A stretch of DNA of 64,000 bases from Clostridia bacterium. GTDB lineage: Bacteria > Bacillota > Clostridia > UBA1212 > UBA1255. The position numbers were made by a program, and so were the translations under genes. Below are positions 11,792 to 52,409 of the stretch, in pieces (the stretch's first letter is position 1; every line of letters starts with the position of its first letter). Location of the stretch: contig JAFZSK010000014.1 of NCBI GenBank assembly GCA_017620915.1, positions 2,712-66,711 of the forward strand, read 5' to 3'. The notes under the pieces were generated by a model. The model was not told where the DNA came from. It saw only the letters and a program-made list of their open reading frames with translations, and did no database searches.

Positions 11792-11884
11792 ATACGACGG
11801 TTAGCGACAGCTAACCTATTATTACGATGAATGGTTAGCATAAACTAACCAATAATTACGACCAAAAGTTAGCAAAAGCTAACT
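11769..11884. promoter_or_regulatory. Array of four 18-bp DtxR/IdeR-like palindromic operators (GGTTAGC-N4-GCTAACC), phased about 34 bp apart
   Basis: Boxes at 11769-11786 (AGTTAGCGGCGGCTAATT), 11799-11816 (GGTTAGCGACAGCTAACC), 11833-11850 (GGTTAGCATAAACTAACC) and 11867-11884 (AGTTAGCAAAAGCTAACT). The half-sites resemble the DtxR consensus TTAGGTTAGCCTAACCTAA but have a longer centre. Confidence 0.65.
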
Positions 11885-11918
11885 CAATCGACACATATCA
11901 CGGGGAGGGCAGGAAAAC

Positions 11919-12131: not shown

Positions 12132-12153
12132 CAATATAAAGGAGGAATATCAC

Positions 12154-12384
12154 TTGAAAACACTCAGAGACGTAAAAATCGGCGAGACCGCCACAGTTGT
12201 GAAACTTCACGGAGAAGGCGCGGTAAAGCGGCGCATCATGGACATGGGCATCACCCGGAGAACTAAAGTATACGTGCGCAAAGTTGCCCCGCTCGGCGAC
12301 CCCATCGAAGTCACTGTCCGGAATTACGAGCTCTCAATCCGCAAAGCGGACGCGGAAATGGTCGAGGTCGAAGAAACCGAGTGA
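12154..12384 (+). CDS. feoA: Second FeoA-domain protein (TTG start)
   Basis: 76 aa, LRDVKIGETATVVKLHGEGAVKRRIMDMGI.. FeoA fold. AAAGGAGG RBS 7 nt before the TTG. Confidence 0.8.
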   Translation: MKTLRDVKIGETATVVKLHGEGAVKRRIMDMGITRRTKVYVRKVAPLGDPIEVTVRNYELSIRKADAEMVEVEETE

Positions 12385-12411
12385 GCAGATAAGCAGAAAG
12401 GAAGCATTTTT

Positions 12412-14937
12412 ATGGACATCAGAATCGCCCTCGCGGGCAATCCGAACAGCGGTAAAACGACGCTATTCAACGCGTTGACCGGCTCCAACCAGTTCGTGGG
12501 CAACTGGCCCGGCGTCACCGTGGAAAAGAAGGAGGGCAAGCTGAAGAAGCACGACGGCGTTATTGTCACCGACCTGCCCGGCATCTACTCGCTCTCGCCG
12601 TACACGCTGGAAGAAGTGGTGGCGCGCAACTACCTCATAGGCGAGCGGCCGGACGCGATACTGAACATCGTTGACGGCACAAACCTGGAACGAAACCTGT
12701 ACCTGACCACGCAATTGACGGAGCTGGGGATCCCGGTGGTAGTCGCCATCAATATGATCGACATCGTTAAAAAGGAAGGCGACAAGATCAACACCGCGGA
12801 ACTGTCGCGCCAGATCGGCTGCCCCGTGATCGAGATCTCCGCGCTGAAGGGCACCGGTATAATGGAGGCTGCGGAAGCGGCCATTGACGCCGCGCAGAAC
12901 GGCAAGACCATACCGCAGCACAAATTCTCCGGCCCCGTGGAGCACGCGCTGGCGCATATTGAGGAGGCCGTTGTCCACGACCTGCCCGAAGAGCAGCAGC
13001 GCTGGTACGCGGTGAAGATCTTCGAGCGCGACGAAAAAGTGCTGGAATCGGTCAAACTGGATCCCGACACGCTGGCGCACATCGAGAAGGATATCCAGGC
13101 TGCCGAGACCGAGCTGGATGACGACGCGGAAAGCATCATCACCAACGAGCGCTACATCTACATCGCGGAAGTCATCAAGGCCTGCTATAAAAAGAAGAAA
13201 GAGAATCAGCTGACGAAGAGCGACAATATCGACAAAGTCGTCACCAACCGGTGGCTTGGTCTGCCGATCTTTGCCATCGTAATGTTCCTGGTGTACTACA
13301 TCGCGATGGTGACGGTGGGTACCGCGGCTACCGACTGGGCCAACGACGGCCTGTTCGGCGACGGCTACCATCTGTTCGGCATTGGGTCAAAAAAATACGA
13401 GACGAAAGTCGAAGATTACGAAGCCGCGGTCAACGCCCTCGCCGCGTTCGAATTTGACGTGGATACCGAGGCGGAGGATTTTGACGCGGACAAACTCGCA
13501 ACGAAGATACAGAGTTTCACCACGGACAAGACGTCTGCCGAAGTTGATGTAACGGATGATGAGACGCTGGAAGAGACGACGCTGACGGTATATTATGACA
13601 CGGTCCCCGCGGATGCCGATGAGGAAACCACTAACGCTATGACATTTAAAGAAGCGGTGGAATACTTCAAGGGCAGGGACTTCAGTTTCGACGAGCCGGA
13701 TCCCGCGGACGACGGCGTCTGGGTGCCCGGTGTTCCCGCGCTGCTGGATAAGCTGCTCCTTGATGCGAATGGCGATCCTAAAGTTCCCGACTGGCTGTAC
13801 GGCCTGATCCAGAACGGTATCGTGGCCGGCGTCGGCGCGGTGCTCGGCTTCGTGCCGCAAATGCTGGTGCTGTTCTTCCTGCTGGCGATCCTGGAGGGCT
13901 GCGGCTACATGGCGCGTATTGCCTTCGTGCTGGACCGTATTTTCAGAAGATTTGGTCTTTCAGGCAAATCCTTCATACCGATGCTCGTGGGTACCGGCTG
14001 CGGCATCCCCGGCATAATGGCCTCGCGAACGATAGAAAATGAACGCGACCGCCGTATGACAATTATGACCACCACGTTCATTCCCTGCGGCGCCAAACTG
14101 CCCTTCATCGCGATGGTGGCCGGCGCACTGTTCGGCGGGTCTGCGTGGGTATCCGTTTCCGCATACTTTATCGGCATGGCGGCGATCATCATCTCCGGTG
14201 TGATGCTTAAGAAGACCAAGCGATTCGCGGGCGATCCCGCGCCCTTCGTAATGGAACTTCCGGCGTACCATCTGCCTACACTGAAAAACGTGCTGCGTTC
14301 CACCTGGGAGCGCGGCTGGTCCTTCATCAAAAAAGCCGGCACGATAATCCTGCTTTCCACTATTGTAGTCTGGTTCACGTCGTACTTCGGCTGGGTCGAC
14401 GGTTCGTTCCGGATGCTGGCGGAAGAGGAGATGGGCAACTCGATCCTGGCTTACATCGGCAAAGGCTTCGCCTGGCTCTTCGCACCGCTCGGCTGGGGCA
14501 ACTGGAAAGCTGCGGTCGCGTCCGTCACCGGACTGGTGGCCAAGGAAAATATTGTCGGTACGATGGGTATCCTGTACGGCAACTGGGCCGGCATTGCCGC
14601 CTCGTTCGCAACTAAATTCGCGGGCTTCTCGTTCCTGGTGTTCAACCTGCTCTGCGCCCCGTGCTTCGCGGCGATCGGCGCTATCCGGCGCGAGATGAAC
14701 AGCGCGAAGTGGACGTGGTTCGCGGTAGGCTATCAGTGCGGTTTCGCGTATGCGATCGCGCTCATGATCAACCAGTTCGGCAATCTGTTTACCGGCAAAC
14801 TCGCTTCCGGCGCCGGAGCCGCGGTCAATGTGATCAGTCTGATCGTTGCCTTCGCGGTGCTGGGTCTGATGATCTACATGTTGTTCTTCCGCAAATATAA
14901 GGAGGCAACGAAACTCACTCAGACTGTCAAAGTCTGA
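12412..14937 (+). CDS. feoB: Ferrous iron transporter FeoB (unusually long, 841 aa, with a large acidic insertion)
   Basis: N-terminal G-domain (IALAGNPNSGKTTLFNALTG ... DLPGIYSL), a GDI-like region and a polytopic C-terminal membrane domain. About 140 aa of D/E-rich sequence is inserted near residues 300-440. Confidence 0.9.
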   Translation: MDIRIALAGNPNSGKTTLFNALTGSNQFVGNWPGVTVEKKEGKLKKHDGVIVTDLPGIYSLSPYTLEEVVARNYLIGERPDAILNIVDGTNLERNLYLTTQLTELGIPVVVAINMIDIVKKEGDKINTAELSRQIGCPVIEISALKGTGIMEAAEAAIDAAQNGKTIPQHKFSGPVEHALAHIEEAVVHDLPEEQQRWYAVKIFERDEKVLESVKLDPDTLAHIEKDIQAAETELDDDAESIITNERYIYIAEVIKACYKKKKENQLTKSDNIDKVVTNRWLGLPIFAIVMFLVYYIAMVTVGTAATDWANDGLFGDGYHLFGIGSKKYETKVEDYEAAVNALAAFEFDVDTEAEDFDADKLATKIQSFTTDKTSAEVDVTDDETLEETTLTVYYDTVPADADEETTNAMTFKEAVEYFKGRDFSFDEPDPADDGVWVPGVPALLDKLLLDANGDPKVPDWLYGLIQNGIVAGVGAVLGFVPQMLVLFFLLAILEGCGYMARIAFVLDRIFRRFGLSGKSFIPMLVGTGCGIPGIMASRTIENERDRRMTIMTTTFIPCGAKLPFIAMVAGALFGGSAWVSVSAYFIGMAAIIISGVMLKKTKRFAGDPAPFVMELPAYHLPTLKNVLRSTWERGWSFIKKAGTIILLSTIVVWFTSYFGWVDGSFRMLAEEEMGNSILAYIGKGFAWLFAPLGWGNWKAAVASVTGLVAKENIVGTMGILYGNWAGIAASFATKFAGFSFLVFNLLCAPCFAAIGAIRREMNSAKWTWFAVGYQCGFAYAIALMINQFGNLFTGKLASGAGAAVNVISLIVAFAVLGLMIYMLFFRKYKEATKLTQTVKV

Positions 14938-15272: not shown

Positions 15273-16754
15273 TTATTTCTTTTTCTTTTTGGCGACAGCG
15301 ATGCCGATAGCCGCCGCAGCCACAACTGCGCAGCCGGCAGCGATTCCGATGATCGCCCCGGTGGGAAGGCCTTTCTTATTGTCCTTGTTGTCCTTTTGGT
15401 CGTTATTGCCGCTGTTGCCGGGATCCTGCGTAGCATTATCCTTCGGCGCTTCCGTGGCAGTCGCCTTGGGAGCATCCGTCACTTCCGGCGCTTCCGTCGG
15501 TTCGGGAGTGGCGGTCGGTTCGGGAGTAGCGGTCGGCGGAGGAGGATCGCCCGGCGCCTGATAATAGAACTGCATGTTGTTGCTGCTTTCATCCATATTC
15601 AGATATGCGTAGGAGATCTCGTCATCTTCCGACTTAAGCTCTACGACCGCTCTGATCTCGTGCATAAGGCCGTCCTGCAGGCCGGTAACGTCAACTTCGA
15701 TCTCGAGCCGGGAAGCATATCCGCCGCCCGCGCCTCTAACAGCTGCCTCGGTCGCCTTAAACGCGTTTTCAAGGAAGACCGGATCGCCGTCGTCGATCTG
15801 ATATCCGGCGCGGGTCATCTCCGCTTCGAAACCGGCCCAGCCGCGGAAAGTGAAGTTCTCGTACGGATCCGCCCGGCCGTCGATCTCTCTGCCGTATTCC
15901 TCAAGCTTTGCGCTGGCGCTGCCGTCCACGCCTTCCATAATAATATTATCCAGCTGAACTCTATTGACGAAGAACGTGTCAAAGCTCATGTTTTTGCCGC
16001 CCGCATCCAGGAAGTCTTCGATCTCTGCGCCTTCCACGACGGTGTGCTCACCGACATCCTCCGGGTCCTTCATTATCTTGACGTCGTTGTCGTTGATCCC
16101 GAGCGCCGAAACGGTCCATTCGGTGGGCGCTTTGGGCAGCGTCGTATAGCCATGTCCTTTAATGACCGCGAACAATCCCATCTTCATCGTTTCGGTAAAT
16201 TTGTAGCCTTCGCCTTCATCGTAATCATCGCCGATCGTGAAGAACGACTGCGGAAGCTTTACTTCGATGACAACATTTTCCTCGTCCTGTACATAGACCG
16301 CCTCCGGAATCAGGTCGGTAATATCCGCCCCGGCGGGATCAGAGTCGTCAAGAAGCTTGGTCTCCCAGTTATGCTGCAGAATCTTCAGCGCGTGATTTTC
16401 CACAACAAATGTGACGAACAGAGGCTGCTGGTCGTCGGCAATATTGCCCGGATTGAACGCGATCTGATACCGGTCGCCTTCGTTAAAACCGCTGTTCGGA
16501 ATAACGATACCCACGAAAAGGACCTGGAACAGCAGACCGTCTCTCGGGGTATTAAGATAGTACGTGATCGTCGTGTCCAGCGTTCCGCCCGTCCACGTTT
16601 GTACGTTGTCGGGCTTCATCTCGAACATGGTCGCGTACTCGCCTTCAGTGATAACGCCATCCACCATGGGATCGTCGTCCGCTGCGATCACCGGAAGGGT
16701 AAAGAGCGAAAGCAGCATTACGGCGGTAATTATGATCGCTAATACTTTTTTCAT
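15273..16754 (-). CDS. Secreted surface protein with Pro/Thr-rich linker and C-terminal LPxTG-like (GLPTGA) motif plus TM anchor and poly-Lys tail
   Basis: Signal peptide MKKVLAIIITAVMLLSLFTLPVIA. PPPTATPEPTATPEPTEAPEVTDAP linker. LPTGA followed by a hydrophobic stretch and KKKKK. AGGAGG RBS. Confidence 0.8.
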   Translation of the reverse strand: MKKVLAIIITAVMLLSLFTLPVIAADDDPMVDGVITEGEYATMFEMKPDNVQTWTGGTLDTTITYYLNTPRDGLLFQVLFVGIVIPNSGFNEGDRYQIAFNPGNIADDQQPLFVTFVVENHALKILQHNWETKLLDDSDPAGADITDLIPEAVYVQDEENVVIEVKLPQSFFTIGDDYDEGEGYKFTETMKMGLFAVIKGHGYTTLPKAPTEWTVSALGINDNDVKIMKDPEDVGEHTVVEGAEIEDFLDAGGKNMSFDTFFVNRVQLDNIIMEGVDGSASAKLEEYGREIDGRADPYENFTFRGWAGFEAEMTRAGYQIDDGDPVFLENAFKATEAAVRGAGGGYASRLEIEVDVTGLQDGLMHEIRAVVELKSEDDEISYAYLNMDESSNNMQFYYQAPGDPPPPTATPEPTATPEPTEAPEVTDAPKATATEAPKDNATQDPGNSGNNDQKDNKDNKKGLPTGAIIGIAAGCAVVAAAAIGIAVAKKKKK

Positions 16755-39012: not shown

Positions 39013-40539
39013 TTGGCCGGGGAGACAGGAAAGCAATACGAGGCCGTGATCGGCCTGGAGATACATATCGAGGTCAAAGGCGCCGGCAAGATGTTCTGCG
39101 GGTGTCCGGCGGAGTTTTCGTTGACGCCCAACGTCAACGTCTGCCCGATCTGCATGGGCTACCCCGGGGCGCTGCCGCGGTTCAACCGGCGCGTGTTGGC
39201 CCCGGCGGTGCGCGAAGGGCTGATGCTGGGCGCGGAGATCGCGCGGGAGGTCCGGTTCGACCGCAAACACTATTTTTATCCCGACCTGCCGAAGGGCTAC
39301 CAGATCACTCAGGCCGAACTGCCGCTGGCATCCGGCGGCGCGATCTTTGTGCACGGGGACAGACCCGCTTTTGAACACGGGGACAGACCAGTGTTCAAAA
39401 ACGAGGACGAAGTTGCGATCCGCATCCGCCGCATGCACATGGAGGAGGACGCCGCGAAGGTCAATTACGGCGCGGACGGCGCAATGCGCATCGACTACAA
39501 CCGCGCGGGGGTGCCGCTGCTGGAGATCGTCACCGAACCCGACCTGCGGAGCGGCGCGGAAGCGGCGGAATTCGCGGAAAAGCTGCGGCTGTACACGGTG
39601 TACGCGGGGGTCTCGGACTGCCGGATGAACGAGGGCAGTATGCGCATTGACGTCAACGTCTCCGTTCACCGCCCCGGCGATCCGCCCGGCAGCCGGGTGG
39701 AACTGAAAAACATCAATTCCTTTGCGTTCATGCGGGCGGCGATCGATTTCGAAGTCCGGCGCCAGACCGCGCTGCTGGAGGCGGGAGAGGCCGTGCCCCA
39801 GGAGACCCGGCGGTTCTCCGAGGAGACGGGGGAGACGCTCCCGATGCGAGCTAAAGAAAATTCAGCGGAGTACCGGTATCTGCCGGAGCGGGATATTGTC
39901 CCCGTGCCGGTGAGCGCGGAACTGATCGAAGCGGAACGCAAAGCATTGCCGGAAAGACCGGAGGCGAAACTCGCGCGGTATATTGAATCGTTCGGGCTGC
40001 GGGCCGCGGACGCGGAACTGATCGCCTCGGAACCGGCGCGGGCGGCGTATTATGAAGCGGTGTGCGGCGCGGCGGAAATCGCGAGGCGGTATGAGGCGGA
40101 AGCGGCCAAGTTCTGTATCTCCCGGGTGTTTCCCGGCAAGGCGTTGCTGACAACAGCGCAGACCGCGGCGATCGTACGGCTCATTGCGGAAGGCGAACTG
40201 GGCAGCGCGAATGTGGTAAAACTGATCGAGGCGGTGAGCGGCAGACCGGACGCGGATCCGGCCGCGGAGCTGGCCGCGCGGGAACTGGGGCTGATCCGGG
40301 ACGAGGCGGTACTGGCCGAGGCGGCGGACAACGCCATTCGTGATAACCCCGAGGCAGTGCGGCAATACCTGAACGGCAAAACGGCGGCGCTGCAGGCGCT
40401 GAAGGGCGCGTGCATGAAGGCGACGCGGGGGAGAGCGGAACCGATGCGACTTGATTCGGTGCTTAAAAGCAAGTTGCAAATGTCAAATGGCAAAGGGCAA
40501 GTTGCAAATGGCAAGTTGCAAATGGCAAAGGGAAAATGA
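39013..40539 (+). CDS. gatB: Asp-tRNA(Asn)/Glu-tRNA(Gln) amidotransferase subunit B, with in-frame palindromic insertion and low-complexity C-terminal tail
   Basis: YEAVIGLEIHIEVKGAGKMFCGCPAEF...CPICMGYPGALP... then the cradle domain and C-terminal YqeY-like domain. TTG start chosen at 39013 with GAGGAGG RBS. The track ORF extends spuriously upstream. Confidence 0.8.
   Translation: MAGETGKQYEAVIGLEIHIEVKGAGKMFCGCPAEFSLTPNVNVCPICMGYPGALPRFNRRVLAPAVREGLMLGAEIAREVRFDRKHYFYPDLPKGYQITQAELPLASGGAIFVHGDRPAFEHGDRPVFKNEDEVAIRIRRMHMEEDAAKVNYGADGAMRIDYNRAGVPLLEIVTEPDLRSGAEAAEFAEKLRLYTVYAGVSDCRMNEGSMRIDVNVSVHRPGDPPGSRVELKNINSFAFMRAAIDFEVRRQTALLEAGEAVPQETRRFSEETGETLPMRAKENSAEYRYLPERDIVPVPVSAELIEAERKALPERPEAKLARYIESFGLRAADAELIASEPARAAYYEAVCGAAEIARRYEAEAAKFCISRVFPGKALLTTAQTAAIVRLIAEGELGSANVVKLIEAVSGRPDADPAAELAARELGLIRDEAVLAEAADNAIRDNPEAVRQYLNGKTAALQALKGACMKATRGRAEPMRLDSVLKSKLQMSNGKGQVANGKLQMAKGK
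39345..39402. mobile_element. Tandem (about 2 copies) in-frame palindromic element inside gatB (CTTTGTGCACGGGGACAGACCCGCTTTTGAACACGGGGACAGACCAGTGTTCAAAAAC)
   Basis: Encodes the inserted peptide VHGDRPAFEHGDRPVFKN between conserved GatB segments. Confidence 0.7.
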
Positions 40540-40583
40540 TAAAGGGCAAATTGAAAATGGTGAGCGGAGAAGGGAAGAAAAAG

Positions 40584-42251: not shown

Positions 42252-45200
42252 ATGAAGAAAATCGTTTCAATAGCACTGGCGATCGTTTTAATTGCATCGC
42301 TGTGCTTGCTGAGCGTATTCGCGGACGGCACGGAAGTGACCAACCTGGCGCTCGGCAGACCGGTGGACGTGTCCATCGATTCCGGAAACGGCAATCTCGG
42401 CAGCGGATTCTGGGATAAAGACTACCTTACCGACGGTCAGGTCCCGGTATTCGGCGGCGAAGGCGATCAGTCCAGACTGGGCTGGTATGCGCAGACCATG
42501 GTCGAAGCCATCGATTGCAAGATCACCATCGATCTGGGCGGCCTGTGCGCGGTAAGCAAAGTTGTGCTTTCTCCGCAGACGTTCCTTGACGGTGCGCAGT
42601 TCCCCACGGATTATACGATCCAGGTCTCTACCGACGGTTCCGCCTGGACAAACGTTGCCGGCGAGACCGGTCACACCGCGTCCTCTACCGCAAACGTTGT
42701 ATTGACGTTTGACGAAGTAGACGCGCGTTATGTCCGCATGGCTATAACCAAAGCCGGCGTTGCCCCGGGCGACGGCACGTATCATACCGGTTTTGCCGAG
42801 TTCGAGATCTACGGCTATGCAAAAGGCGAGATCGCGGAACCCGATACCGAAGTGTACACTGCGGCGGGCGGCGGTATCGTTTGGGATGCCGGTGTATGGC
42901 TTGCCAACGAAACCGATGTCGACGGACACGGTGGCCGTACTTTCGGCGCAATGGTCAATACCAGCGCTCCCATCCTTGAAGCCGGTGTTCCCAACTACTG
43001 GGCCAGCAATCCCAACAACAACGCGGCACAGGCCAGAGCCACAGTACATATTAATGTATACAAATTTGACACCAACTATGCCGCGACCAAGAAGATCGCT
43101 CCGGTCGCTTCCGGAGAAGTGGAACTTGCCGGTGACTCGGGTGTAGGCGAAGTAACGGAAGTCGCGGGCACGAACTGCAAGATCGTGGCCAACGGCAGCG
43201 CCGGTGCAAAACTTGTATTTAACACTCCGCTCGAAGCCGGCCAGTACCTGATCGAGATCAGCCAGGTTACGCAGCAGGAAGCATCTCACTATCTTGTTCT
43301 GCCCATGACGCAGGAAGCTCCCGGTTCTAAGGCTACTTACTACCTGAACGATGTGCTTCAGGACAACCTGACCTGCAGAGTGCGTCTGCTGCTGAAGGGC
43401 TCCGGCGAACTGCTGGATGTGACCGCGGACTCTGAAGCCGAGTTCAAACATTCGCTTGACGCGCTTGCGGTTAACGAGAACAAATATCCTGTCTCCTCTA
43501 ACCAGAACGAGGCGACCACGATCACTATCAATGAAGGCGATAAGCTTTATATCCTCGGCTGGACCGCCAAGACCGGTACGAACCTTGATAAGATCATCTG
43601 GCAGTACATTGAAGGCGACCACAAGTTCAATGAGGACGGCGTGGAGATCATCACAAAAGATTGCTCCGACACGTACAGACCCAGAACGGAGATCTCTCCG
43701 TATATTGGCGTCAACGAAGCGTTCCTTACCAACGCCGGTTTCGGTCTGGACAACAGCCTGATGGAACTGGTGGGCGTTGACGAACTGGCTCCCGGAACGT
43801 ATTCTCTGAGAATCCGTGCCCAGTTTGATGACGGCTCCGACGGCGCGATAAAAAAGAAATTCGTGCTGAATGTTGTCGAGACTCCGAAGGTCAAAGTTAT
43901 CCTTGGCACCGAAGAGACCGCTGTCAAACCCGACGCGGTATCTCAGGTCGCACTGTCCATGGACGAAGGCAGCATGGTCGTTGCCACCAATTCGGATGCT
44001 TCCGATCCCTGGGTCTCCATCCCGCTGAACAACATCGACACTTCCGTGTACACTTCGTTCACGGTCAAGTACAGACTGGTAGGCGAGAGCGCGTTCGCAG
44101 CCAACAACGTCTACTTGCGCGACACCGAAGTCAACAAGGGTTACTCCGGCGTGGGCGGCACCTGGCATGCTCCGGAAATGGACGGCAAGACCGAGAGAAC
44201 ATTCGTTATTGCCGATGACTTCCCGACCATGGCCGGCACGCTTCTTACCGGTGTGCGCTTTGTGGCCTGCAAGCCCGGCCAGACGTTCATAATCGACTCC
44301 ATCACCTTCAACAAGGCGGAAGAGCCGCACACTCCCGTAACGCGCAGCTTTGACTCCGCTACGGACAATCAGTACTTTGACGCCATCTTCATCAACGACG
44401 AAGAAGGCCCGAGAGCTAACGGCAACGACGCGGTGGCGGCCCTCAAAGCCCTCATCGACGGCAGCGCCGAAGAGATCAACAAGATCGGTCTGTACGGCTG
44501 GTTCGCCTCCGATTCTCCGATCGTGCAGTTCGGTTATATCCTTGACGACGCTGATCCTGTGTTTGACGACTCGTTCGTTGCTCCCTTCGGCAGCCCCGAA
44601 GAGGAAGCTACCATCACCGGCACCAGAGCGGGCGGCAAGAGATACCGCGTCAACGTTGACGTCTCCGGCCTGAAGGACGGTGCGACTCACGTTATTAAAG
44701 TAGTTGCCAAACTCGAGAACGGCGACATCGTTATCTTCGACAGACCGAATAGAGAAGCTATCGTGAACTATCAGGCTCCCGCACCGGCGGAGACCCCGTT
44801 CGTGGAATATATGTCCCGCGACCAGGTCACCATCGACGGCGTTGACAAAGCGAGCTTCGGCGGCAACGCTGAAGTCACCGATATCGCGGACAATCTGTAC
44901 GCTGACTTCGGCAAGCAGCTGCGCTTCTGGGGCTGGTACGGCAACAACAAATCGCTGGAGAAATACGGCGTGAGAGTTGACGGCGGCGAGGCTCAGTATT
45001 TCGACAGATACGAGGCTGAGGACATTGTCAACCACTTCAAAGCCAACCTGATCAAAGACGACGACGTGTACGCGTCCCGCTTTGAGATCTTCGTTGACAT
45101 CACCGAAGGTCAGCACACCGCGGAAGTGTTCGCGGTCGTGAACGGCGAAGAGCACCTGATCTGGACGATCAACTACAACTGCATGCCTGAGGAAGTTCCT

Positions 45201-45323
45201 CAGACGACCAAGCCCGGGACCGAGCCTCCGCAGACCGGCGACGCGCTGCTTGCGATGTTCGCGGTCATCGCTGTGCTGGCCATGAGCGCTGCTGTGGTGT
45301 TCGCCCGCAGAAAGTCTCACTGA
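42252..45323 (+). CDS. Large cell-wall-anchored surface protein: N-terminal F5/8 type C (discoidin/CBM32-like) domain, repeated about 110-aa modules of unknown function, C-terminal PPQTGD sorting motif plus TM and positively charged tail
   Basis: Signal peptide MKKIVSIALAIVLIASLCLLSVFA. F5/8-C-like block DYLTDGQV...YTIQVSTDGSAWTNVAG...ARYVRMAI. C-terminal ...PPQTGDALLAMFAVIAVLAMSAAVVFARRKSH. AGGAGG RBS. Confidence 0.8.
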   Translation: MKKIVSIALAIVLIASLCLLSVFADGTEVTNLALGRPVDVSIDSGNGNLGSGFWDKDYLTDGQVPVFGGEGDQSRLGWYAQTMVEAIDCKITIDLGGLCAVSKVVLSPQTFLDGAQFPTDYTIQVSTDGSAWTNVAGETGHTASSTANVVLTFDEVDARYVRMAITKAGVAPGDGTYHTGFAEFEIYGYAKGEIAEPDTEVYTAAGGGIVWDAGVWLANETDVDGHGGRTFGAMVNTSAPILEAGVPNYWASNPNNNAAQARATVHINVYKFDTNYAATKKIAPVASGEVELAGDSGVGEVTEVAGTNCKIVANGSAGAKLVFNTPLEAGQYLIEISQVTQQEASHYLVLPMTQEAPGSKATYYLNDVLQDNLTCRVRLLLKGSGELLDVTADSEAEFKHSLDALAVNENKYPVSSNQNEATTITINEGDKLYILGWTAKTGTNLDKIIWQYIEGDHKFNEDGVEIITKDCSDTYRPRTEISPYIGVNEAFLTNAGFGLDNSLMELVGVDELAPGTYSLRIRAQFDDGSDGAIKKKFVLNVVETPKVKVILGTEETAVKPDAVSQVALSMDEGSMVVATNSDASDPWVSIPLNNIDTSVYTSFTVKYRLVGESAFAANNVYLRDTEVNKGYSGVGGTWHAPEMDGKTERTFVIADDFPTMAGTLLTGVRFVACKPGQTFIIDSITFNKAEEPHTPVTRSFDSATDNQYFDAIFINDEEGPRANGNDAVAALKALIDGSAEEINKIGLYGWFASDSPIVQFGYILDDADPVFDDSFVAPFGSPEEEATITGTRAGGKRYRVNVDVSGLKDGATHVIKVVAKLENGDIVIFDRPNREAIVNYQAPAPAETPFVEYMSRDQVTIDGVDKASFGGNAEVTDIADNLYADFGKQLRFWGWYGNNKSLEKYGVRVDGGEAQYFDRYEAEDIVNHFKANLIKDDDVYASRFEIFVDITEGQHTAEVFAVVNGEEHLIWTINYNCMPEEVPQTTKPGTEPPQTGDALLAMFAVIAVLAMSAAVVFARRKSH

Positions 45324-45375
45324 GCATGATCAACCGGCCGCGCCGCAGGGCGTGACCCGGGAATAAGCAAAACTA

Positions 45376-45432
45376 AAAGAGGCTGTTCAAAAACCTGCCG
45401 ACGCGGGGGCTTGAACAGCCTCTTTATTAATT
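45376..45432 (+). terminator. Intrinsic terminator (15-bp stem AAAGAGGCTGTTCAA / TTGAACAGCCTCTTT, then T-rich tail)
   Basis: Read directly downstream of the 45323 stop. Confidence 0.7.
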
Positions 45433-45605
45433 AATTAATCTATTGAAACCGCATAAAAACGGGCAGGAAATAGTAAAATGAAAAAAATGCAGTAAAGTCA
45501 AAAAACTGTTGCGGCATTTGATTTTTTATGTTATACTGACAACGACTTGGTTTTTATGGAAAACGAAACATAAACCAAACAAAAAGAATAATTGGAGGAG
45601 TAAAC

Positions 45606-48600
45606 ATGAAGAAGCTGACAATCGCGTTGATCGTAGTATTGACGCTGGTTCTGGGACTTGGCGTTCTGACGGTCGTCGGAATGGATGCCATGTATGCTGA
45701 CGTTAATACACTTCAGTGGGACGGCACGACCCCGGATTCCGGCCTTGTCGGAGCATCAACTGTTAAGATCGATCCCGGACAGAAACTTTATATTCTCGGC
45801 TGGTTTGCAGAGCATGGAAAAACTGTCGATAAAGTAGTCTGGACGCTTGACGGCGTTGAAAAAGAATGCGCTGATAACTACAGAGACAGGGGCGAGATCG
45901 CGGGAATATTTGGCTCACCGTGGGTCGCGGAAGATTTCAATAGAGCAGGCTACGGAAAAGACGCTGACATGATGGAACTGCTCGGCGTTGACGAACTTGC
46001 AGAAGGCATTTACACCGTTTCGATCATAGGTAAATTTACGGACGGTTCTTCGCAAACGCTTAAAAGCGATTTTACCCTTGCCGTCGGCAACGTCGCTACC
46101 CTGTCTGATCATCCTATCAGAAACGGCGGCGAGAGCATCGGTACCTGGATCCAGAAAGGCAGTGTTTCCAACTATGTAGAATTCACTACTGCAGGGAAGG
46201 TAAGCGGCTTTAACTTCCATTACTGGGCTTCCAACCCGGCCGGAACCGGTCCCAAAGCTACGTGGAAAGCAGAACTTTACAAATTCGTGAACAATCCGGA
46301 TTATTCGTTCACAAAAGACCCGCTTAAAACTGTGACTGTCACGTCTAATGGTGACAACGATCCTGTCGTTAACGTTAAGTGGGACGAAGCTCTGGATGCC
46401 GGAACTTATCTCATTAAATTCACGATCCTGAATCCGGATTACACCGAGGAGATCGGCGGCGAAATGAAGCGTCCTTACTTGGTTCTGCCTAAGATCACCA
46501 ATCCTGACGCTGCTAAATTCGCATACGGTGCAGATGCTTTCAATCTCTCGGTATACGGCGAAGACGTTGACGGCGACTTCTTCCTGGAAAATCCCGCGAA
46601 TGTTGATTCAAAAGAAATTTTACAGATCGACTACGTATGGCTTCATACATCAGGCGAAGTGATTGAAAATGTAGGCACAGGACCCGATATCGGTAATATA
46701 AAGACCGCAGTTGACAAGGGTGCTTCGCTTTTCTCGATTATCGGATGGTATTATCCGCAGAAACCGATCGACCACTTTGAGATCCAGGTTGACGACGGTG
46801 AACGCATCGCTGTCGAGGGCACCTATAATGCCGATACAGCTGCGGTCATCGGCGGATGGGACGGATGCTCCGATTATGAATGGTACAGAAATTATACTGC
46901 TACAGTTCAGCTCCTTGAAGGCGAGCACAATGTTAAATTATATGTCAAATCTTACGATGGAACTGAGAAATTGCTCTATTCGGGACGCTACCTGAATGAC
47001 GATTCCAATATTGCGTATGGAAAGAGAACAGTCGTAGGTTATACTGCAGGATCGCCTTACGGTTCTCCCTACTGGAGCGAAGGCTACCTCACGGACGGAA
47101 CAAAATGGAAATTCAGCGACGGCACAGTTAAAAACCCGGTCCCGCTGGGCTGGTACGTTCAGGATCCTGCAGACAACATGATCTACATCGACCTTGAAGA
47201 TGTGTACGATCTGACGGAGATCAAACTCTATCCTATGGGCTTCGCTTACGGCACGTTCCCGAATACGTTCACCGTATATACTTCTCTCGATATGGCGGCC
47301 TGGGATGTGGTCGGCGGCGAGACCGGCCTGACGGGTGCTTTTGACTCTGCAGCTCCGTTCTCATATACCACGACCAACCGTGCAAGATATATCTGTGTTG
47401 TTATTAACACGGGCAACAACGGTCAAGTAAGTTTAGGCGAGATCGAAGCTTACGGTACTTTCGTTGAGGAAGGAACCGGGCTTCCGGCATATCTGCCTTA
47501 TTATTCCAACTATGGCGGCGGTGTAAGATATGACGATCCGTGGAACGATTCCTCCTGGACCGGCTTTAACACCGGTTCGCTTGAGAACAAGATAGTATTC
47601 AATACCGATGTTCCGATCAGCGCAATACAGTTCCCTGCGGCATGGGCGGCGGAGGATACTCCTGTGACCTTCACGTTTAAGAAAGACGGCGCGGTCGTCG
47701 CGACAGTCGAAAAGGTGTTCACAGGCGACGGCGGATTTATTCTTGAGTTTGCCGAGGAACTTCCGGCGGGTGAATATGTATTAGATATCAAGATAACGGA
47801 TGATAAGGTCAATCCCGAGAATGGCGCCTATGCGTACTATCTTGCCCTTGGTTACGCGGATGCTGCTCCGTACGGCAAAGAATATGTTGACCAGCTGCGC
47901 GGCCGCAATGTTGCTATTAACCTCTATTCCAGCGACACGACCGGCGAAGGCTTCATCAAGCGTAATTACAAAGAGGGAATGTCCCGCGATCAGGTAAGAG
48001 TTGACGGCGTGGACAAAGCGAGCGTCGGCGGCAATGCTGCTGTAACGGACATTGCAGAAAACCTTTACGACTCCATCGGCAAAAACATCAACTTCTGGGG
48101 CTGGTACGGAAACAATATGGGCCTCGATAAGTTCGGCGTCAAAGTTGACGGCGGAGAAATGGTCTACTCTGACAGATACTCCGATCCCAGCATCGCGGCG
48201 CATCTTACCAACAACGTATTCAATGGCGATATTGCGTACAGCGATCGCTTCAATATCGATGTCGAGATCACCGAAGGCGAACATACCGCTGAGGTTTACG
48301 CTATCACCAACGACGGCGAAGTGCTTGTCTGGACGATCAACTACAAAGCGACTGCTCCGGAGGAGGAACACGGCCTGCGCGATTTCGACAAGAACAAAGG
48401 CGACGCTCTGTCCTATGACAACATTTTCGTCAACGGCGAACAGGTGGCCGAAGGCAACAGCCAGGTCATCGCGACCAAGAAGCTGATCGACGGTTCTGAC
48501 GGCTCTGTTGAAAACATCGCTATGCGCGGCTGGTACGGCAACGCGAACGCGAGCGTAGTAAGCTACGGATACCGGATCGACGGCGGAGAGCCGGTATACG

Positions 48601-49382
48601 GCGATTTCGCGTCCGAAGCAGAGCAGCCTGTAATTGAATCGGGCGGCGAGTCCAGATTCCTGGTCACCGTTGACGTGACCGGACTTAAAGACGGCAAGGA
48701 GCATAAGATCGAAGTCGTGGCCAAGCTGGACAACGGCGACATCGTTATCCTCAACAGATACGACGTTGATACCGATAAGGATCGCGAAGTCTACGTGAAC
48801 TACAAAGCGCCGGAAGCTCCGGAAGAAGAGCTGAAGTGGCATGTCAATATTGACGCCATCACCGCGGGCGGAGCCGCTCAGGATAAGACCGATCCGCTTG
48901 CGCTCGAAGTTGCCAACGACGTTGACAGCATCAACTTCCACGGCTGGGTCGCTTCCAACAAGCCTATCACGAAATACGGATACAGAGTTGACGGCGGGGA
49001 AGTCGTTTACTTCGACGGAACGCTCGGCGGAGAAGACGCTGATTCTGTGGCGATCATGAACGCCGCGAAGGGCATGTACGGCGAGAACGGCAACGGCTAC
49101 CGCTACAGCAAGGATATCCCGCTTGATGAAGGTGAGCATACGCTCGAGATCATCGCGCTGTGCGGCGATACCGATGTTGCGGTCTTCACGATCAACTACA
49201 AGAGAGCTCAGGCTGAGACTCAGCCTACCACCGAGCCCACCACCGAACCTACCACCGAGCCCGGGACCGAACCCGGAACCGAGCCGCCGCAGACCGGCGA
49301 CGCGCTGATCGCGATGTTCGCGGTCATCGTGGTGCTGGCAATGGGTGCCGCTGTGGTATTCGCGAAGAAAAGATCGTTCTGA
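45606..49382 (+). CDS. Large cell-wall-anchored surface protein paralog (1258 aa): central F5/8 type C-like domain, multiple copies of the same about 110-aa repeat module, PPQTGD anchor
   Basis: Signal peptide. F5/8-C-like block around residues 480-640 (YLTDGTKWKF...FTVYTSLDMAAWDVVGGETG...ARYICVVI...GEIEAYG). Modules with GWYGN...YG(Y/V)(R/K)VDGGE...EGEHT. C-terminal ...PPQTGDALIAMFAVIVVLAMGAAVVFAKKRSF. GGAGGAG RBS. Confidence 0.8.
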   Translation: MKKLTIALIVVLTLVLGLGVLTVVGMDAMYADVNTLQWDGTTPDSGLVGASTVKIDPGQKLYILGWFAEHGKTVDKVVWTLDGVEKECADNYRDRGEIAGIFGSPWVAEDFNRAGYGKDADMMELLGVDELAEGIYTVSIIGKFTDGSSQTLKSDFTLAVGNVATLSDHPIRNGGESIGTWIQKGSVSNYVEFTTAGKVSGFNFHYWASNPAGTGPKATWKAELYKFVNNPDYSFTKDPLKTVTVTSNGDNDPVVNVKWDEALDAGTYLIKFTILNPDYTEEIGGEMKRPYLVLPKITNPDAAKFAYGADAFNLSVYGEDVDGDFFLENPANVDSKEILQIDYVWLHTSGEVIENVGTGPDIGNIKTAVDKGASLFSIIGWYYPQKPIDHFEIQVDDGERIAVEGTYNADTAAVIGGWDGCSDYEWYRNYTATVQLLEGEHNVKLYVKSYDGTEKLLYSGRYLNDDSNIAYGKRTVVGYTAGSPYGSPYWSEGYLTDGTKWKFSDGTVKNPVPLGWYVQDPADNMIYIDLEDVYDLTEIKLYPMGFAYGTFPNTFTVYTSLDMAAWDVVGGETGLTGAFDSAAPFSYTTTNRARYICVVINTGNNGQVSLGEIEAYGTFVEEGTGLPAYLPYYSNYGGGVRYDDPWNDSSWTGFNTGSLENKIVFNTDVPISAIQFPAAWAAEDTPVTFTFKKDGAVVATVEKVFTGDGGFILEFAEELPAGEYVLDIKITDDKVNPENGAYAYYLALGYADAAPYGKEYVDQLRGRNVAINLYSSDTTGEGFIKRNYKEGMSRDQVRVDGVDKASVGGNAAVTDIAENLYDSIGKNINFWGWYGNNMGLDKFGVKVDGGEMVYSDRYSDPSIAAHLTNNVFNGDIAYSDRFNIDVEITEGEHTAEVYAITNDGEVLVWTINYKATAPEEEHGLRDFDKNKGDALSYDNIFVNGEQVAEGNSQVIATKKLIDGSDGSVENIAMRGWYGNANASVVSYGYRIDGGEPVYGDFASEAEQPVIESGGESRFLVTVDVTGLKDGKEHKIEVVAKLDNGDIVILNRYDVDTDKDREVYVNYKAPEAPEEELKWHVNIDAITAGGAAQDKTDPLALEVANDVDSINFHGWVASNKPITKYGYRVDGGEVVYFDGTLGGEDADSVAIMNAAKGMYGENGNGYRYSKDIPLDEGEHTLEIIALCGDTDVAVFTINYKRAQAETQPTTEPTTEPTTEPGTEPGTEPPQTGDALIAMFAVIVVLAMGAAVVFAKKRSF

Positions 49383-49440
49383 TCTCTGATCTCCGATCGA
49401 TCCGGCCATTTAAGCGGCTGAAATAGCTTAAACAATACGG

Positions 49441-49489
49441 GGCTGTTTGCAGACCTTGCTTTTGCGGGGCGAACAAACAGCCCTTTTGA
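49441..49489 (+). terminator. Intrinsic terminator hairpin (GGGCTGTTTG...CAAACAGCCC, then TTTTGA) immediately before the third paralog
   Basis: 10-bp stem, 23-nt loop, U-tract. The next start codon follows 10 nt later. Confidence 0.55.
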
Positions 49490-49498
49490 GGAAACGGT

Positions 49499-51955
49499 AT
49501 GAAAAAGATCATTATTTCAACGATATTGGTGCTGGCGATGTTATTGTCGCTGTGCAGCTTTGCCGGTGCCGCGGAAACGCCGTGGGAATACTGCCAGATG
49601 GATTTTGTACTGCTCTGGAACAAAGACGTGGCATTCATCGAGAACATGGGCAAGGGCAGTGATCTCGGCCAGATCAAACCGGCCGTTGACGCCGGGGCCA
49701 ACGGCATCTGCCTGATGGGCTGGTATTATCCGCCAACGACAGATGAGATCGTTGACTACGGTTATCAGGTGGATGACGGCGAGATCGTGTACGATTCCAT
49801 TGCCTGTATTTACGACGCGAATCTGGCGCCTGCGCTCGTGTCCTTTGGCGGCGACTGGGTCGATCGTGCCGACTATGCCCGTAACTTCAACGGCAACATC
49901 CCGATCCAGGAAGGCAGCCACACGGTCAAACTGATCGCCAGGTTCGCGGACGGTTCCACAAAAGCCATTTATCAGACCCGTTACGCCAACGACGATTCCG
50001 ACCTCGCGCTGAACAAGCCGGTCTATATCGAGCTGAAGAACGGTGTCCGCAACGGTTCGGGCTACTGGGACGATTCGTTCATCAACGACGGCTACAATCC
50101 CGTGCACAAGCCTGATGTGGTTCCGGATCCGGTGCCGCTGGGCTTTTATCCGATCGCCGCCGGACACGTGGTCGCGGATATATACATTGACCTCGAAGGC
50201 GAGTACGACCTGGAAAAAGTCACGCTCCACTCCCAGGGCTTCTATAGTGACTCCTTCCCGAACACATACAATGTGTATACGTCCAAAGACGGCGCCAGCT
50301 GGGATAAGATCGGCGGCGAAAGCGGACGGACCGGTGAAGTCGATACCGCCGAGCCCTTCGTGTATGCCACCACCAACCGTGCGCGCTTTATCAAAGTAGA
50401 GGTGCTCTCGGGCAATATCGTTGACGACAGCGGCTTCGAATACATGGGCATCGGCGAGATCGAGGCGTACGGCAAATACGCCGGCAAATCCACCGTGGTC
50501 AAACCCGGCTACATTCCTTACTCGAACTATTCGGGCGGCGTGGCGTTCGGCGACGCGGGCGGCAATTCCGCCTGGACCGGCTTCACTACCGGCACGCTTA
50601 CTTATAAATTTATGTTCAACACCGATGTGTCGTTCTACAAGATCGGCTTCCCGGTGGCGTGGGGCCTTGCGGGCACGCCGCTGAAGTTCGAGTTTAAGAA
50701 GGACGGGGAGGTCGTTGCCACCCAGACGTACACGGCAGTCGGCGACGCGCCGTTCACGCTGGACATCGGCAAGACGCTCGAAGCGGGCGAGTATGAGGTC
50801 ATTGTCACCATCACGGACGATGAGCTCCGGCCGGAAGGCGACCCGAACGCCGGCGCCTACCTGTATTACATGGTATTCGGCTACGCGACCGAAGGCGTGC
50901 TGGACAACACATACTTCGCCCAGGAGCGCGGCCAGATCGCCTTCGATCTATACTCGAACGAAACGAATGGCCAGGGCTTCATCAAGCGCGAATACAAGCA
51001 GCACGCCAACATTGACGCGGTCTCGCTGGACGGGGAGAGCAAGGGCAATGAGAACGGCCTGGCGATCACAGTAAGCGAGAACAGCCAGAACATCCTGGTG
51101 CACGGCTGGCTGGCGGCCAACTATCCGATCGAAAAGTACGGGTACAAAGTTGACGGCGGCGCGGCGGTGTACGACGACAGCTTCCTCAACCGGGATTACG
51201 GTACGGCGGAAGCGCCCAACGCGGACTATTTCGCGATCCTCGGCGTGGCGCAGGATCTGTACAGCGTCGCGGGCAACGGTTTCCGTGCCAACGTTCTTGT
51301 CCCCGTGACCGAAGGCGGCCACTCTGTGGAGATCGTGGCGATGGTCGCCGGTGAAGAGAAAGTGTTCTACACCTTCACGTACGCGCCGGAAGGCGTGCAT
51401 GTGCCGGTGACGCGCAGTTTTGACGCGGATACGGACAATCAGTACTTCGACGCTATCTTCTACAACAACGAGGACGCTCCCCGGGCCAACGGCAACGATG
51501 AAGTGGCGGCGCTGAAGACGCTCATTGACGGCTCGGCCGGTGACATCGAAGTGCTGGGTCTGTACGGCTGGTTCTCTTCCGATTCCCCGATCGTGCAGTT
51601 TGGTTATGTGCTGGACGGCAGGGATCCGGTATTTGACGACGCGTTCACGGCGCCGCTAAACGCCGGGGAAGAGGAGGCGATCGGCGGTTCCAGAGCGGGC
51701 GGCAAGCGGTACCGCGTGAATATTGACGTCACCCGCCTGAACGACGGCAATACCCACGAGATCAAAGTCGTGGCAAAACTGGAAAACGGCGACACGGTCA
51801 TCTTCGACCGGGCCAACCGGGAAGCGATCGTATACTACAAGGCGCCCGGCGCTGAACTGCCCGGTACCGGTGACGCAGTGATCCTCGTGCTCGCCGCGAT
51901 CGCGCTGCTGGCAATGACCGCCGCAGTGATATTCATTCGCAAAAAAGCGCATTGA
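49499..51955 (+). CDS. Cell-wall-anchored surface protein paralog (818 aa): F5/8 type C-like domain, shared C-terminal module, canonical LPGTG anchor
   Basis: Signal peptide MKKIIISTILVLAMLLSLCSFAGA. F5/8-C-like block around residues 165-320. The C-terminal 150 aa are about 75% identical to protein 1. Ends ...LPGTGDAVILVLAAIALLAMTAAVIFIRKKAH. Confidence 0.8.
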   Translation: MKKIIISTILVLAMLLSLCSFAGAAETPWEYCQMDFVLLWNKDVAFIENMGKGSDLGQIKPAVDAGANGICLMGWYYPPTTDEIVDYGYQVDDGEIVYDSIACIYDANLAPALVSFGGDWVDRADYARNFNGNIPIQEGSHTVKLIARFADGSTKAIYQTRYANDDSDLALNKPVYIELKNGVRNGSGYWDDSFINDGYNPVHKPDVVPDPVPLGFYPIAAGHVVADIYIDLEGEYDLEKVTLHSQGFYSDSFPNTYNVYTSKDGASWDKIGGESGRTGEVDTAEPFVYATTNRARFIKVEVLSGNIVDDSGFEYMGIGEIEAYGKYAGKSTVVKPGYIPYSNYSGGVAFGDAGGNSAWTGFTTGTLTYKFMFNTDVSFYKIGFPVAWGLAGTPLKFEFKKDGEVVATQTYTAVGDAPFTLDIGKTLEAGEYEVIVTITDDELRPEGDPNAGAYLYYMVFGYATEGVLDNTYFAQERGQIAFDLYSNETNGQGFIKREYKQHANIDAVSLDGESKGNENGLAITVSENSQNILVHGWLAANYPIEKYGYKVDGGAAVYDDSFLNRDYGTAEAPNADYFAILGVAQDLYSVAGNGFRANVLVPVTEGGHSVEIVAMVAGEEKVFYTFTYAPEGVHVPVTRSFDADTDNQYFDAIFYNNEDAPRANGNDEVAALKTLIDGSAGDIEVLGLYGWFSSDSPIVQFGYVLDGRDPVFDDAFTAPLNAGEEEAIGGSRAGGKRYRVNIDVTRLNDGNTHEIKVVAKLENGDTVIFDRANREAIVYYKAPGAELPGTGDAVILVLAAIALLAMTAAVIFIRKKAH

Positions 51956-52039: not shown

Positions 52040-52215
52040 GTTCAAACGAGCGCGTTTGTCTTACATTCTCGCTCATTTGACCGGGTAATCAACGTGACTG
52101 ATAAGACAAGATTTCTCAAATGAGTGATCTTGTCTTATTTTGTTCTCTCCAGGTCTTCAAAATGTAAGACAATATGCCTCAAACGGGCAAAAATGTCTTA
52201 CTTTTCGCCTTTTGG
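52040..52215. repeat. Tandem palindromic repeat family E: 3 copies of about 65 bp with (G)TAAGACAA-N22-TTGTCTTA(C)
   Basis: Example: GATAAGACAAGATTTCTCAAATGAGTGATCTTGTCTTAT. Lies upstream of ldh. Confidence 0.8.
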
Positions 52216-52409
52216 GCAGGTCACAGACGCAGCCGACCTTTGCCATTTGCCCTTTGTCATTTACCCCCTGTCCCTTGCCCTTTGCCCCTTGCGCCAAGGC
52301 TGTCTTCGTGGTACAATACTATGAGGTGCTTTGGCCGCAGGCCCGAACGCCGCCAAATGGCAATTTGCAAACAGCAAGTTGCATGAAATAATTCAGAAGG
52401 TGAAATTCA

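Follow-up and report, generated by a model that had tools for sequence, protein, structure and literature searches.

A cluster of three open reading frames (ORFs) on the plus strand, at positions 42252 to 51955 of the 64-kb window analyzed here (the whole stretch of Clostridia bacterium DNA, to which all positions refer), encodes three large surface proteins, P1 (42252 to 45323), P2 (45606 to 49382), and P3 (49499 to 51955), of 1023, 1258, and 818 amino acids (aa), respectively. These are probably sortase-anchored, fibrillar-adhesin-like proteins in which a discoidin domain (F5/8 type C [F5/8-C]) and a partner, module B, would contact a glycan, a tandem array of a repeat termed here the GW module would form the stalk, and the modules would be re-assorted as cassettes. 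P1 to P3 belong to a well-known general kind of protein but consist for the most part of uncurated domain families, which have a moderately wide distribution among uncultured Clostridia. An initial annotation, made from the sequence alone, had placed the three-gene cluster at exactly these ORF coordinates and had described its products as paralogous secreted proteins with sortase-type sorting signals, which is supported; P3 is colinear with residues 337 to 1071 of P2, with 40% identity over 783 aa. All three proteins begin with MKK followed by a hydrophobic h-region of 18 to 22 aa, which on direct reading resembles a signal peptide, as had been proposed for each of them. On the same reading, the N-terminal Cys residues of P1 and P3 have no preceding lipobox, and a lipoprotein signal peptide was rejected.

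Five kinds of modules fill essentially all residues of P1 to P3, leaving no room for a catalytic domain. P1 consists, in order, of a signal peptide, F5/8-C, module B, an ILGW-type GW module, module C, GW-b, GW-a, a short P/T linker, and a PPQTGD sorting signal. P2 has a signal peptide, an ILGW module, module B, a GW module, F5/8-C, a second module B, GW-a, GW-b, GW-a', a (TEP)n linker, and a PPQTGD sorting signal, and P3 has a signal peptide, a GW module, F5/8-C, module B, GW-a', GW-b, and an LPGTGD sorting signal. The name GW module is a descriptive label for the repeat, which comprises subtypes a, a', and b plus the divergent ILGW type; the GW-a module of P1 and residues 788 to 920 of P2 share 59% aa identity. 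In the model proposed here, in which anchoring, glycan binding, and the stalk role are predictions, P1 to P3 would be exported by the Sec system of an uncultured rumen or gut Clostridia bacterium, and a sortase would then cut the x-P-x-T-G-D signal between Thr and Gly and join each protein to the peptidoglycan. The wall-proximal tandem GW modules would act as a spacer or stalk that presents the CBM32-like discoidin domain and its constant partner, the jelly-roll sandwich of module B, both of which would contact the ligand, presumably plant, host, or microbial glycans. Recombination between neighboring paralogs and between strains would re-assort the modules and diversify the displayed surface.

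The GW module is 125 to 155 aa long and occurs in 11 copies in P1 to P3, comprising seven clear copies, two divergent ones (P2 residues 334 to 479 and P3 residues 30 to 167), and two very divergent ILGW modules (P1 residues 405 to 546 and P2 residues 29 to 165). The seven clear copies have hidden Markov model (HMM) domain E values of 1e-41 to 1e-56, with BLAST self-hits down to 1e-68, and the ILGW modules are homologous to GW in an hhalign profile-profile comparison (probability, 96.9%; E = 1.6e-10). The repeat reported in the initial annotation thus exists, with E values far beyond chance, and has no named family, but its length had been put too low, at about 110 aa. A Pfam match had been set beforehand as the observation that would speak against a novel repeat, and none was found; neither Pfam nor NCBIfam gave a GW match at E ≤ 1 in P1, P2, or P3, and no model of either database covers the module in 10 plus 81 diverse relatives. 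A search of the GW profile against all PDB sequences returned nothing significant (best E = 0.01, over 38 residues), and sub-threshold echoes of Big_7, CopC, Gmad2, and Lmo2445-like_C appear in GW-module relatives. Judged by these profile searches, the GW module is a new, uncurated family catalogued in neither Pfam nor NCBIfam. An exhaustive HMMER search of 1.84 billion representatives recovered 583 GW clusters with E ≤ 1e-3, of which 225 had E ≤ 1e-10; all are from uncultured Clostridia, one protein can have as many as 15 copies, and those few members that have a name are each called "hypothetical protein [Clostridia bacterium]." A word-indexed search had given 1 match with the GW profile and 11 with full-length P2, and the extreme rarity of the module that this implied was rejected as a search artifact in view of the exhaustive result.

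The arrangement of the copies fits a stalk. GW-superfamily modules number 485 in the 161 proteins collected (median, 3 per protein; maximum, 15), and 189 of 324 neighboring pairs lie less than 35 aa apart, as do the pairs at P1 residues 703 to 843 and 850 to 978, P2 residues 788 to 916, 932 to 1069, and 1076 to 1201, and P3 residues 499 to 631 and 645 to 783. The distance from the end of the last GW module to the anchor motif is at most 40 aa in 31 of 60 anchored proteins and at most 15 aa in 22, P3 being an example. Because of this tandem spacing and anchor proximity, the GW module fits the operational stalk definition of Monzon and Bateman (BMC Genomics 2021, PMC8286594), and by position and spacing it behaves across the family like a tandem, wall-proximal stalk domain. 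Like the fibrillar adhesins and fibrillar-adhesin-like proteins of Firmicutes described in that study, P1 to P3 are large and secreted and combine a binding-type domain with tandem beta-sandwich modules less than 35 aa apart, a C-terminal sortase signal, and rapid module turnover. They differ in that the GW stalk candidates are not in Pfam, the copies are far more diverged than typical stalk repeats, and P2 and P3 carry their discoidin domain internally; the main text of PMC8286594 does not mention F5/8-C or "discoidin."

An AlphaFold2 model of P2 residues 1076 to 1201, built from a 58-sequence alignment, reached a predicted local distance difference test (pLDDT) score of 96.6 and a predicted template modeling score of 0.88. 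It consists of seven beta-strands and one 17-residue helix in an immunoglobulin (Ig)-like, E-set-type sandwich. Foldseek against the PDB returned generic E-set/Ig-like sandwiches alone (E ≥ 4e-3; template modeling [TM] score ≤ 0.5), among them PDE6D, UNC119, NPC2, and the C-terminal domain of sulfite dehydrogenase. An AlphaFold model had been suggested in the initial annotation as a check for a new carbohydrate-binding module (CBM) or lectin fold, and this is not borne out; on the predicted structure, the family is new, but its fold is not and belongs to a common class. The family signature runs S-x-D in strand 1, G-W in strand 3, F-G-Y-x-I-D-G-G-E in strand 4 and the following turn, R-F in strand 5, and P and G-x-H in strand 6. 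The fold class is shared with the E-set and bacterial Ig-like families Big_7, CopC, Gmad2, and Lmo2445-like_C, whose scattered echoes come from multicopy relatives; unlike these, the GW module has the inserted helix and its own signature, and no per-domain match exceeds a cutoff. With the Listeria GW modules (SH3-like repeats in InlB and Ami that bind the wall) it has in common just the Gly-Trp dipeptide and a Gram-positive surface location, whereas it gives no Pfam GW/SH3-type match and its predicted sandwich is not SH3-like. Isopeptide or ester cross-link domains of the CnaB or Cpe0147 type were also considered and rejected; the GW family has no conserved Lys or Thr/Gln pair.

Each protein has one F5_F8_type_C domain above the Pfam gathering score of PF00754 (28.2 bits), at 53 bits in P1, 32.1 bits in P2, and 31.0 bits in P3, in agreement with the one discoidin-like domain per protein noted initially. 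The nearest solved sequences to the P1 domain are the CBM32 modules of the Clostridium perfringens glycoside hydrolase family 84 (GH84) enzymes NagH and NagJ (2j7m, 2j1a, and 2v5d; E = 5e-7), of which it is a detectable relative; unlike those modules, the discoidin domains of P1 to P3 are not joined to any glycoside hydrolase, and the P2 and P3 copies are marginal. By the likeness of the P1 domain to CBM32, a role as glycan-binding adhesins, which the initial annotation had considered likely, is kept as the most reasonable reading of P1 to P3.

Module B follows the discoidin domain immediately on its C-terminal side in P1, P2, and P3. It is about 170 to 200 aa long, bears a YWASNP...LYKF or FPxxWA signature, occurs in four copies in P1 to P3, and is present in 58 of the 161 collected proteins. 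The copy in P1 has no Pfam match, and a profile search with module B against PDB sequences gave no significant match. The AlphaFold2 model of the P3 copy (pLDDT, 91.0) is an all-beta, jelly-roll-like sandwich with weak fold resemblance (TM score < 0.5) to PHR domains, CBM6, CBM36, CBM61, BT0996-C, and the Bc2L-C lectin. A third uncurated module, module C, occupies P1 residues 547 to 690 and is also found in the homologs P0005, P0008, P0011, and P0012. The four copies of module B, module C in P1, and a fourth GW-module gene at 15273 to 16754 had been overlooked initially. In P0012, an ILGW module and module C are combined with a dockerin that replaces the sortase signal, so that the same module pool serves wall-anchored and cellulosome-type proteins. 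A further uncurated module of about 105 aa (DWIGIY...WWY) stands just before the anchor, in the C-terminal regions of homologs P0002, P0005, and P0011.

The C termini of P1 to P3 are three-part sorting signals, with TEPPQTGD and RRKSH in P1, TEPPQTGD and KKRSF in P2, and AELPGTGD and RKKAH in P3, separated in each by about 20 hydrophobic residues, which confirms the two PPQTGD signals and the one LPGTGD signal of the initial annotation. They agree with the definition of sorting signals in PMC4155245 (an LPXTG-like pentapeptide 17 to 45 residues from the C terminus, a hydrophobic segment, and two or more basic residues), the motif lying about 31 residues from the C terminus and the basic residues being RRK, KKR, and RKK. 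The PPQTG of P1 and P2 literally fits the (S/P)PxTG substrates of Clostridioides difficile SrtB, which have the same three-part signal (PMC4155245), and two GW-family members match the NCBIfam model NF033846 (Rumino_NPXTG) at E ≤ 1e-3, with its similar x-P-x-T-G signal. Unlike SrtB and NF033846 substrates, P1 to P3 fall below all curated cutoffs, and the family motif is looser at positions 1 to 3 and nearly always has D or N after Gly. Among the collected relatives, PPQTGD was counted 9 times, QPQTGD 8 times, NPGTGN and VPQTGD 5 times each, and NTQTGD and TPPTGD 3 times each, and NVQTGD, IPETGD, LPQTGD, and others also occur. In about 60 relatives with an anchor, the first position is filled by P, Q, N, V, T, L, I, or A and the second by P, T, V, or Q, and T-G-(D/N) is constant, giving a family-wide motif x-[P/T/V/Q]-x-T-G-[D/N] in which positions 1 to 3 drift.

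It is therefore likely, going by these motif comparisons, that PPQTGD and LPGTGD are read by one tolerant sortase class within which the motif is drifting. The initial annotation had left a choice between two sortase specificities and drift; drift within one class is favored, with positions 1 to 3 varying and T-G-(D/N) kept, and two specificities are the less likely choice. A single SrtB of C. difficile cleaves several (S/P)PxTG variants and does not cleave LPETG or NVQTG in vitro (PMC4155245), so that specificity at position 1 is possible in principle. That two sortases separate PPQTGD from LPGTGD, and that P3 is sorted or anchored differently from P1 and P2, appears unlikely. LPGTGD is retained in the 91%-identical ortholog of P3 and at the sister locus, and the hydrophobic segment of P3 is unlike the tails of P1 and P2, which are nearly identical; both points speak for two sortases. 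However, the P3 lineage itself passes from LPGTGD to IPETGD (45% identity) and NTQTGD, one genome carries NVQTGD and NTQTGD side by side on neighboring family proteins, and the common TG(D/N) context, kept while positions 1 and 2 vary, points to a single recognition class.

Several observations weigh against anchored adhesins with a glycan-binding head on a GW stalk. No curated anchor model reaches its cutoff in P1 to P3: PF00746 (cutoff, 20 bits) scores 13.5 in P1 and 16.9 in P3, with no match listed for P2; TIGR01167 (15.9 bits) scores 12.8 to 14.6 across the three (13.8 in P1 and 14.6 in P3); and NF033846 (23.5 bits) scores 13.9 in P1 only. These anchor models are trained on canonical motifs. 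No sortase ORF with the TLxTC signature was found in the window or in the related loci L001 to L005, and the housekeeping neighbors of the cluster (gatB, murD, ldh, and Hdr-like genes) give no functional hint. The discoidin scores of P2 and P3 barely clear the Pfam cutoff, and the P2 domain has no PDB sequence relative at E ≤ 0.01. The domain is N-terminal in P1 only and internal, not distal, in P2 and P3, where GW-type modules also lie on its N-terminal side, so that a head on a stalk fits these two proteins less well. The GW copies within one protein are only 20 to 60% identical, and the family keeps, besides an invariant Trp and a near-invariant Tyr, a set of polar residues (D8, D54, E57, R91, and H103) that suggests a site for binding, for instance, a metal or ligand and not merely a passive spacer.

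These last two features are what would be expected if the GW modules themselves bound ligand, as a new CBM or Ca2+-dependent lectin family, with strong divergence within a protein reflecting different specificities and P1 to P3 acting as multivalent, multispecific lectins. This is possible but on the unlikely side. In rumen Clostridia the module is also found on cellulosome-type proteins with dockerin and cohesin domains, and it has a weak profile match to the CBM chain 2w3j (E = 0.029). Among 81 diverse members, however, the partner domains are F5/8-C (7 members), cohesin (5), and dockerin (5), besides anchors, and carbohydrate-active catalytic partners are nearly absent (single matches to a GDSL esterase, NAGPA, a 3-keto-disaccharide hydrolase, and a CelK-like protein); a place near the wall and long tandem runs, here of up to 15 copies, are what stalk domains typically show, and the fold neighbors are generic E-set domains and not CBMs. 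The broader proposal, that the GW module and perhaps module B form an unrecognized CBM or lectin family specific to rumen and gut Clostridia and borne by both sortase-anchored and cellulosome-type proteins, is doubtful; if true, the swapping of cassettes between paralogs would amount to a rapid re-tuning of surface binding.

The cohesin and dockerin partners, each on 5 of the 81 members, and the dockerin in place of an anchor in P0012 could also speak for P1 to P3 being structural or scaffold parts of the envelope, in a cellulosome-like or S-layer-like assembly, and not adhesins for external glycans. P1, P2, and P3 themselves have no cohesin, dockerin, or SLH domain, and all three keep a discoidin domain, whose characterized bacterial relatives bind sugars; such a scaffold role is quite improbable. 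The preferred reading remains that of anchored adhesins in which the discoidin domain and module B would make the contact and the GW modules would serve as the stalk.

The exchange of modules at this locus was seen by comparison with a sister strain, in which the three-gene cluster is found at the corresponding position (L004; ENA ERZ28653742 scaffold_1288) with about 91% DNA identity. The ratios of nonsynonymous to synonymous substitution rates (dN/dS) against the sister strain are 0.13, 0.13 (codons 1 to 915), and 0.05 for genes 1, 2, and 3, and all three genes are under purifying selection. In gene 2 of the sister strain, the last two GW modules (window 48357 to 49257) are replaced by a copy of the last two modules of its gene 1, and L004 positions 6314 to 7180 and 2259 to 3125, one stretch in each of these two genes, are 99.3% identical over 867 bp; the replacement also brings a further DWIGIY module. 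This stretch reflects a cassette duplication or gene conversion that took place within the locus very recently. Other relatives have yet other C-terminal cassettes. Recombination between paralogs is therefore real and recent, but the event is other than the one in the initial annotation, according to which the C-terminal 150 aa of P1 and P3 are about 75% identical through recent recombination. That comparison was misregistered; the last 150 aa of P1 and P3 share 26% identity, and the true match is between the penultimate module of P1 (residues 700 to 849) and the last module of P3 (residues 640 to 788), with 73.5% aa identity and 74.6% nucleotide identity, at which level it is not recent. It is the anchor tails of P1 and P2 that are alike, with 75% aa identity over the last 40 residues and 87% nucleotide identity over a 99-bp stretch that lies just 5' of the anchor-coding region and runs into it.

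The GC content of gene 2 is 0.518, compared with 0.563 for gene 1 and 0.585 for gene 3, and its GC content at third codon positions (GC3) is 0.60, compared with 0.70 and 0.77 for genes 1 and 3 and 0.75 to 0.83 for housekeeping genes. The lower GC content of gene 2 had been noticed initially; it is confined to roughly the first 900 codons (45606 to about 48300), where GC3 is 0.47 to 0.56, compared with 0.63 to 0.74 in the rest. Codons 1 to 915 also have a synonymous divergence (dS) of 0.44 against the sister strain, compared with 0.12 to 0.23 in neighboring genes. Low GC3 together with raised dS suggests that the 5' part of gene 2 was replaced segmentally from a more distant allele. Horizontal transfer of the whole gene was considered less likely, the two signals being limited to this part and the gene standing in the same place in the sister strain; replacement of an allele or of a segment is thus the more probable origin, compared with a recent insertion of the entire gene.

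The initial annotation had given each gene its own AT-rich promoter and its own terminator. Hairpin terminators are indeed present 3' of all three genes (-32.3, -28.7, and -22.2 kcal/mol). A promoter-like site of good quality lies upstream of gene 1 only (11 of 12 matches); gene 2 is preceded by an AT-rich region with an extended -10 element and has a strong GGAGG ribosome-binding site. The claim is not supported for gene 3; its 116-nt spacer from gene 2 (49383 to 49498) is not AT-rich, has no promoter-like site, and consists mostly of the gene 2 terminator hairpin, which stops 8 nt before the gene 3 ribosome-binding site. The length of this spacer is kept in the sister strain. To judge from this layout, gene 3 may be expressed by read-through or from a promoter inside gene 2. 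The positions of the modules and of the associated signals are given in Table 1.

Table 1. Modules, sorting signals, and terminator-like hairpins of the P1 to P3 gene cluster
Feature	Position in window	Strand	Evidence or remark
P1 F5/8 type C (discoidin, CBM32-like), aa 53-167	42408..42752	+	PF00754 53 bits; PF22633 46.7 bits
P1 module B, aa 176-374	42777..43373	+	Iterated HMM E 5e-16; no Pfam match
P1 divergent ILGW-type GW module, aa 405-546	43464..43889	+	ILGW-profile HMM E 2.8e-46
P1 module C (DPWVSIPL... type), aa 547-690	43890..44321	+	Sequence reading; no Pfam match at E ≤ 1
P1 GW-b module, aa 691-847	44322..44792	+	HMM E 5e-52
P1 GW-a module (FWGWYGNN...EGQHT), aa 848-981	44793..45194	+	HMM E 1e-56
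P1 sorting signal (PPQTGD, hydrophobic stretch, RRKSH)	45228..45320	+	
Terminator-like hairpin after gene 1, then AT-rich tail	45376..45440	+	-32.3 kcal/mol; terminator scan agrees
P2 ILGW-type GW module, aa 29-165	45690..46100	+	HMM E 9.5e-46
P2 module B copy 1, aa about 166-333	46101..46604	+	HMM E 2.7e-52; envelope 136-333
P2 divergent GW module, aa 334-479	46605..47042	+	HMM E 1.4e-7; colinear with P3 30-167
P2 F5/8 type C, aa 483-607	47052..47426	+	PF00754 32.1 bits
P2 module B copy 2, aa 611-787 (or to 790)	47436..47966	+	HMM E 4.9e-62
P2 GW-a module, aa 788-921	47967..48368	+	HMM E 8.5e-56
P2 GW-b module, aa 922-1072	48369..48821	+	HMM E 2.6e-41; within segment replaced in sister strain
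P2 GW-a' module (modeled copy), aa 1073-1204	48822..49217	+	HMM E 1.9e-50
P2 Thr/Glu/Pro-rich linker and sorting signal (PPQTGD, hydrophobic stretch, KKRSF)	49218..49379	+	
Terminator-like hairpin after gene 2	49439..49488	+	-28.7 kcal/mol
P3 divergent GW module, aa 30-167	49586..49999	+	HMM E 4.8e-15
P3 F5/8 type C, aa about 170-318 (Pfam best stretch 226-304)	50006..50452	+	PF00754 31.0 bits
P3 module B (modeled copy), aa 319-495 (or to 501)	50453..50983	+	HMM E 6.3e-59
P3 GW-a' module, aa 496-633	50984..51397	+	HMM E 2.5e-49
P3 GW-b module, aa 640-786, abutting anchor motif	51416..51856	+	HMM E 9.6e-50
P3 sorting signal (LPGTGD, hydrophobic stretch, RKKAH)	51857..51952	+	
Terminator-like hairpin after gene 3	52100..52143	+	-22.2 kcal/mol

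P1 and P3 are identical to NCBI MBO5076235.1 and MBO5076237.1, respectively, from a "Clostridia bacterium" metagenome-assembled genome (MAG), and the accession numbers of the flanking MurD and Ldh are adjacent to theirs. Close relatives are supplied by rumen MAGs (sheep omasum RGIG5989, Ruminococcus sp. RUG13779, and Mageeibacillus sp. UBA1212). The NCBI Prokaryotic Genome Annotation Pipeline names P1 and P3 just "discoidin domain-containing protein," and one Joint Genome Institute copy in the P3 cluster is named "LPXTG-motif cell wall-anchored protein." P1 to P3 and their relatives are annotated only as discoidin domain-containing or hypothetical because the module families are uncurated; most residues of P1 to P3 and of several hundred related clusters from uncultured rumen and gut Clostridia belong to two or three families that have no curated description. 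Defining the GW module and module B would improve the annotation of surface and cellulosome-associated proteins in rumen metagenomes, enlarge the catalogs of stalk and adhesive domains, and yield candidate glycan-binding modules. In addition, the 99.3%-identical cassette in the sister strain is a clean natural example of surface-protein diversification, and the motif x-P-x-T-G-D/N, seen throughout the family, is further evidence that sortase signals are relaxed in Clostridia. These findings overturn nothing in current understanding and hold no surprise for the specialist.

The fourth GW-module gene, on the minus strand at 15273 to 16754, encodes a secreted protein of 493 aa with one GW-b-type module, and the GW family in this genome is therefore not limited to the three-gene cluster. 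Its product has an N-terminal region with no assigned family, then a PT-rich linker (PTATPEPTATPEPTEAPE), and a tail of KKGLPTGA, a hydrophobic stretch, and KKKKK; no Pfam match of meaningful score was obtained. GLPTG, its anchor-like motif, is again unlike those of P1 to P3. In a more distant relative (L005; ENA ERZ1462797 contig-81_37, positions 898 to 14430), the ortholog of P2 stands next to a SASA-family (sialate O-acetylesterase-like) gene and a small gene with a BcGHD glycoside hydrolase domain. The same locus encodes a second anchored protein with F5/8-C and module B, whose anchor motif is NVQTGD. The window has no such carbohydrate-related context.

The cluster is flanked upstream by an aminotransferase-like gene, gatB, and murD and downstream by ldh, a CCG-domain gene, a ferredoxin-like gene, and an HdrA-like gene. 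Two arrays of 7-nt-periodic repeats (TTGCCMT-type heptamers with spacings of 14, 14, and 21) were found, one at the gatB/murD junction in minus orientation (40469 to 40574) and one between gene 3 and ldh in plus orientation (52237 to 52291), so that murD and the three surface-protein genes lie between two arrays that are inverted relative to each other. The upstream array probably explains the extension of the C terminus of GatB and of the N terminus of MurD in the ORF list; MurD has 513 aa in NCBI, compared with 529 aa in the ORF. Single heptamer matches also lie near 6969, 8889, 9326, and 53634, and 14 matches were observed, compared with 1.4 expected by chance.

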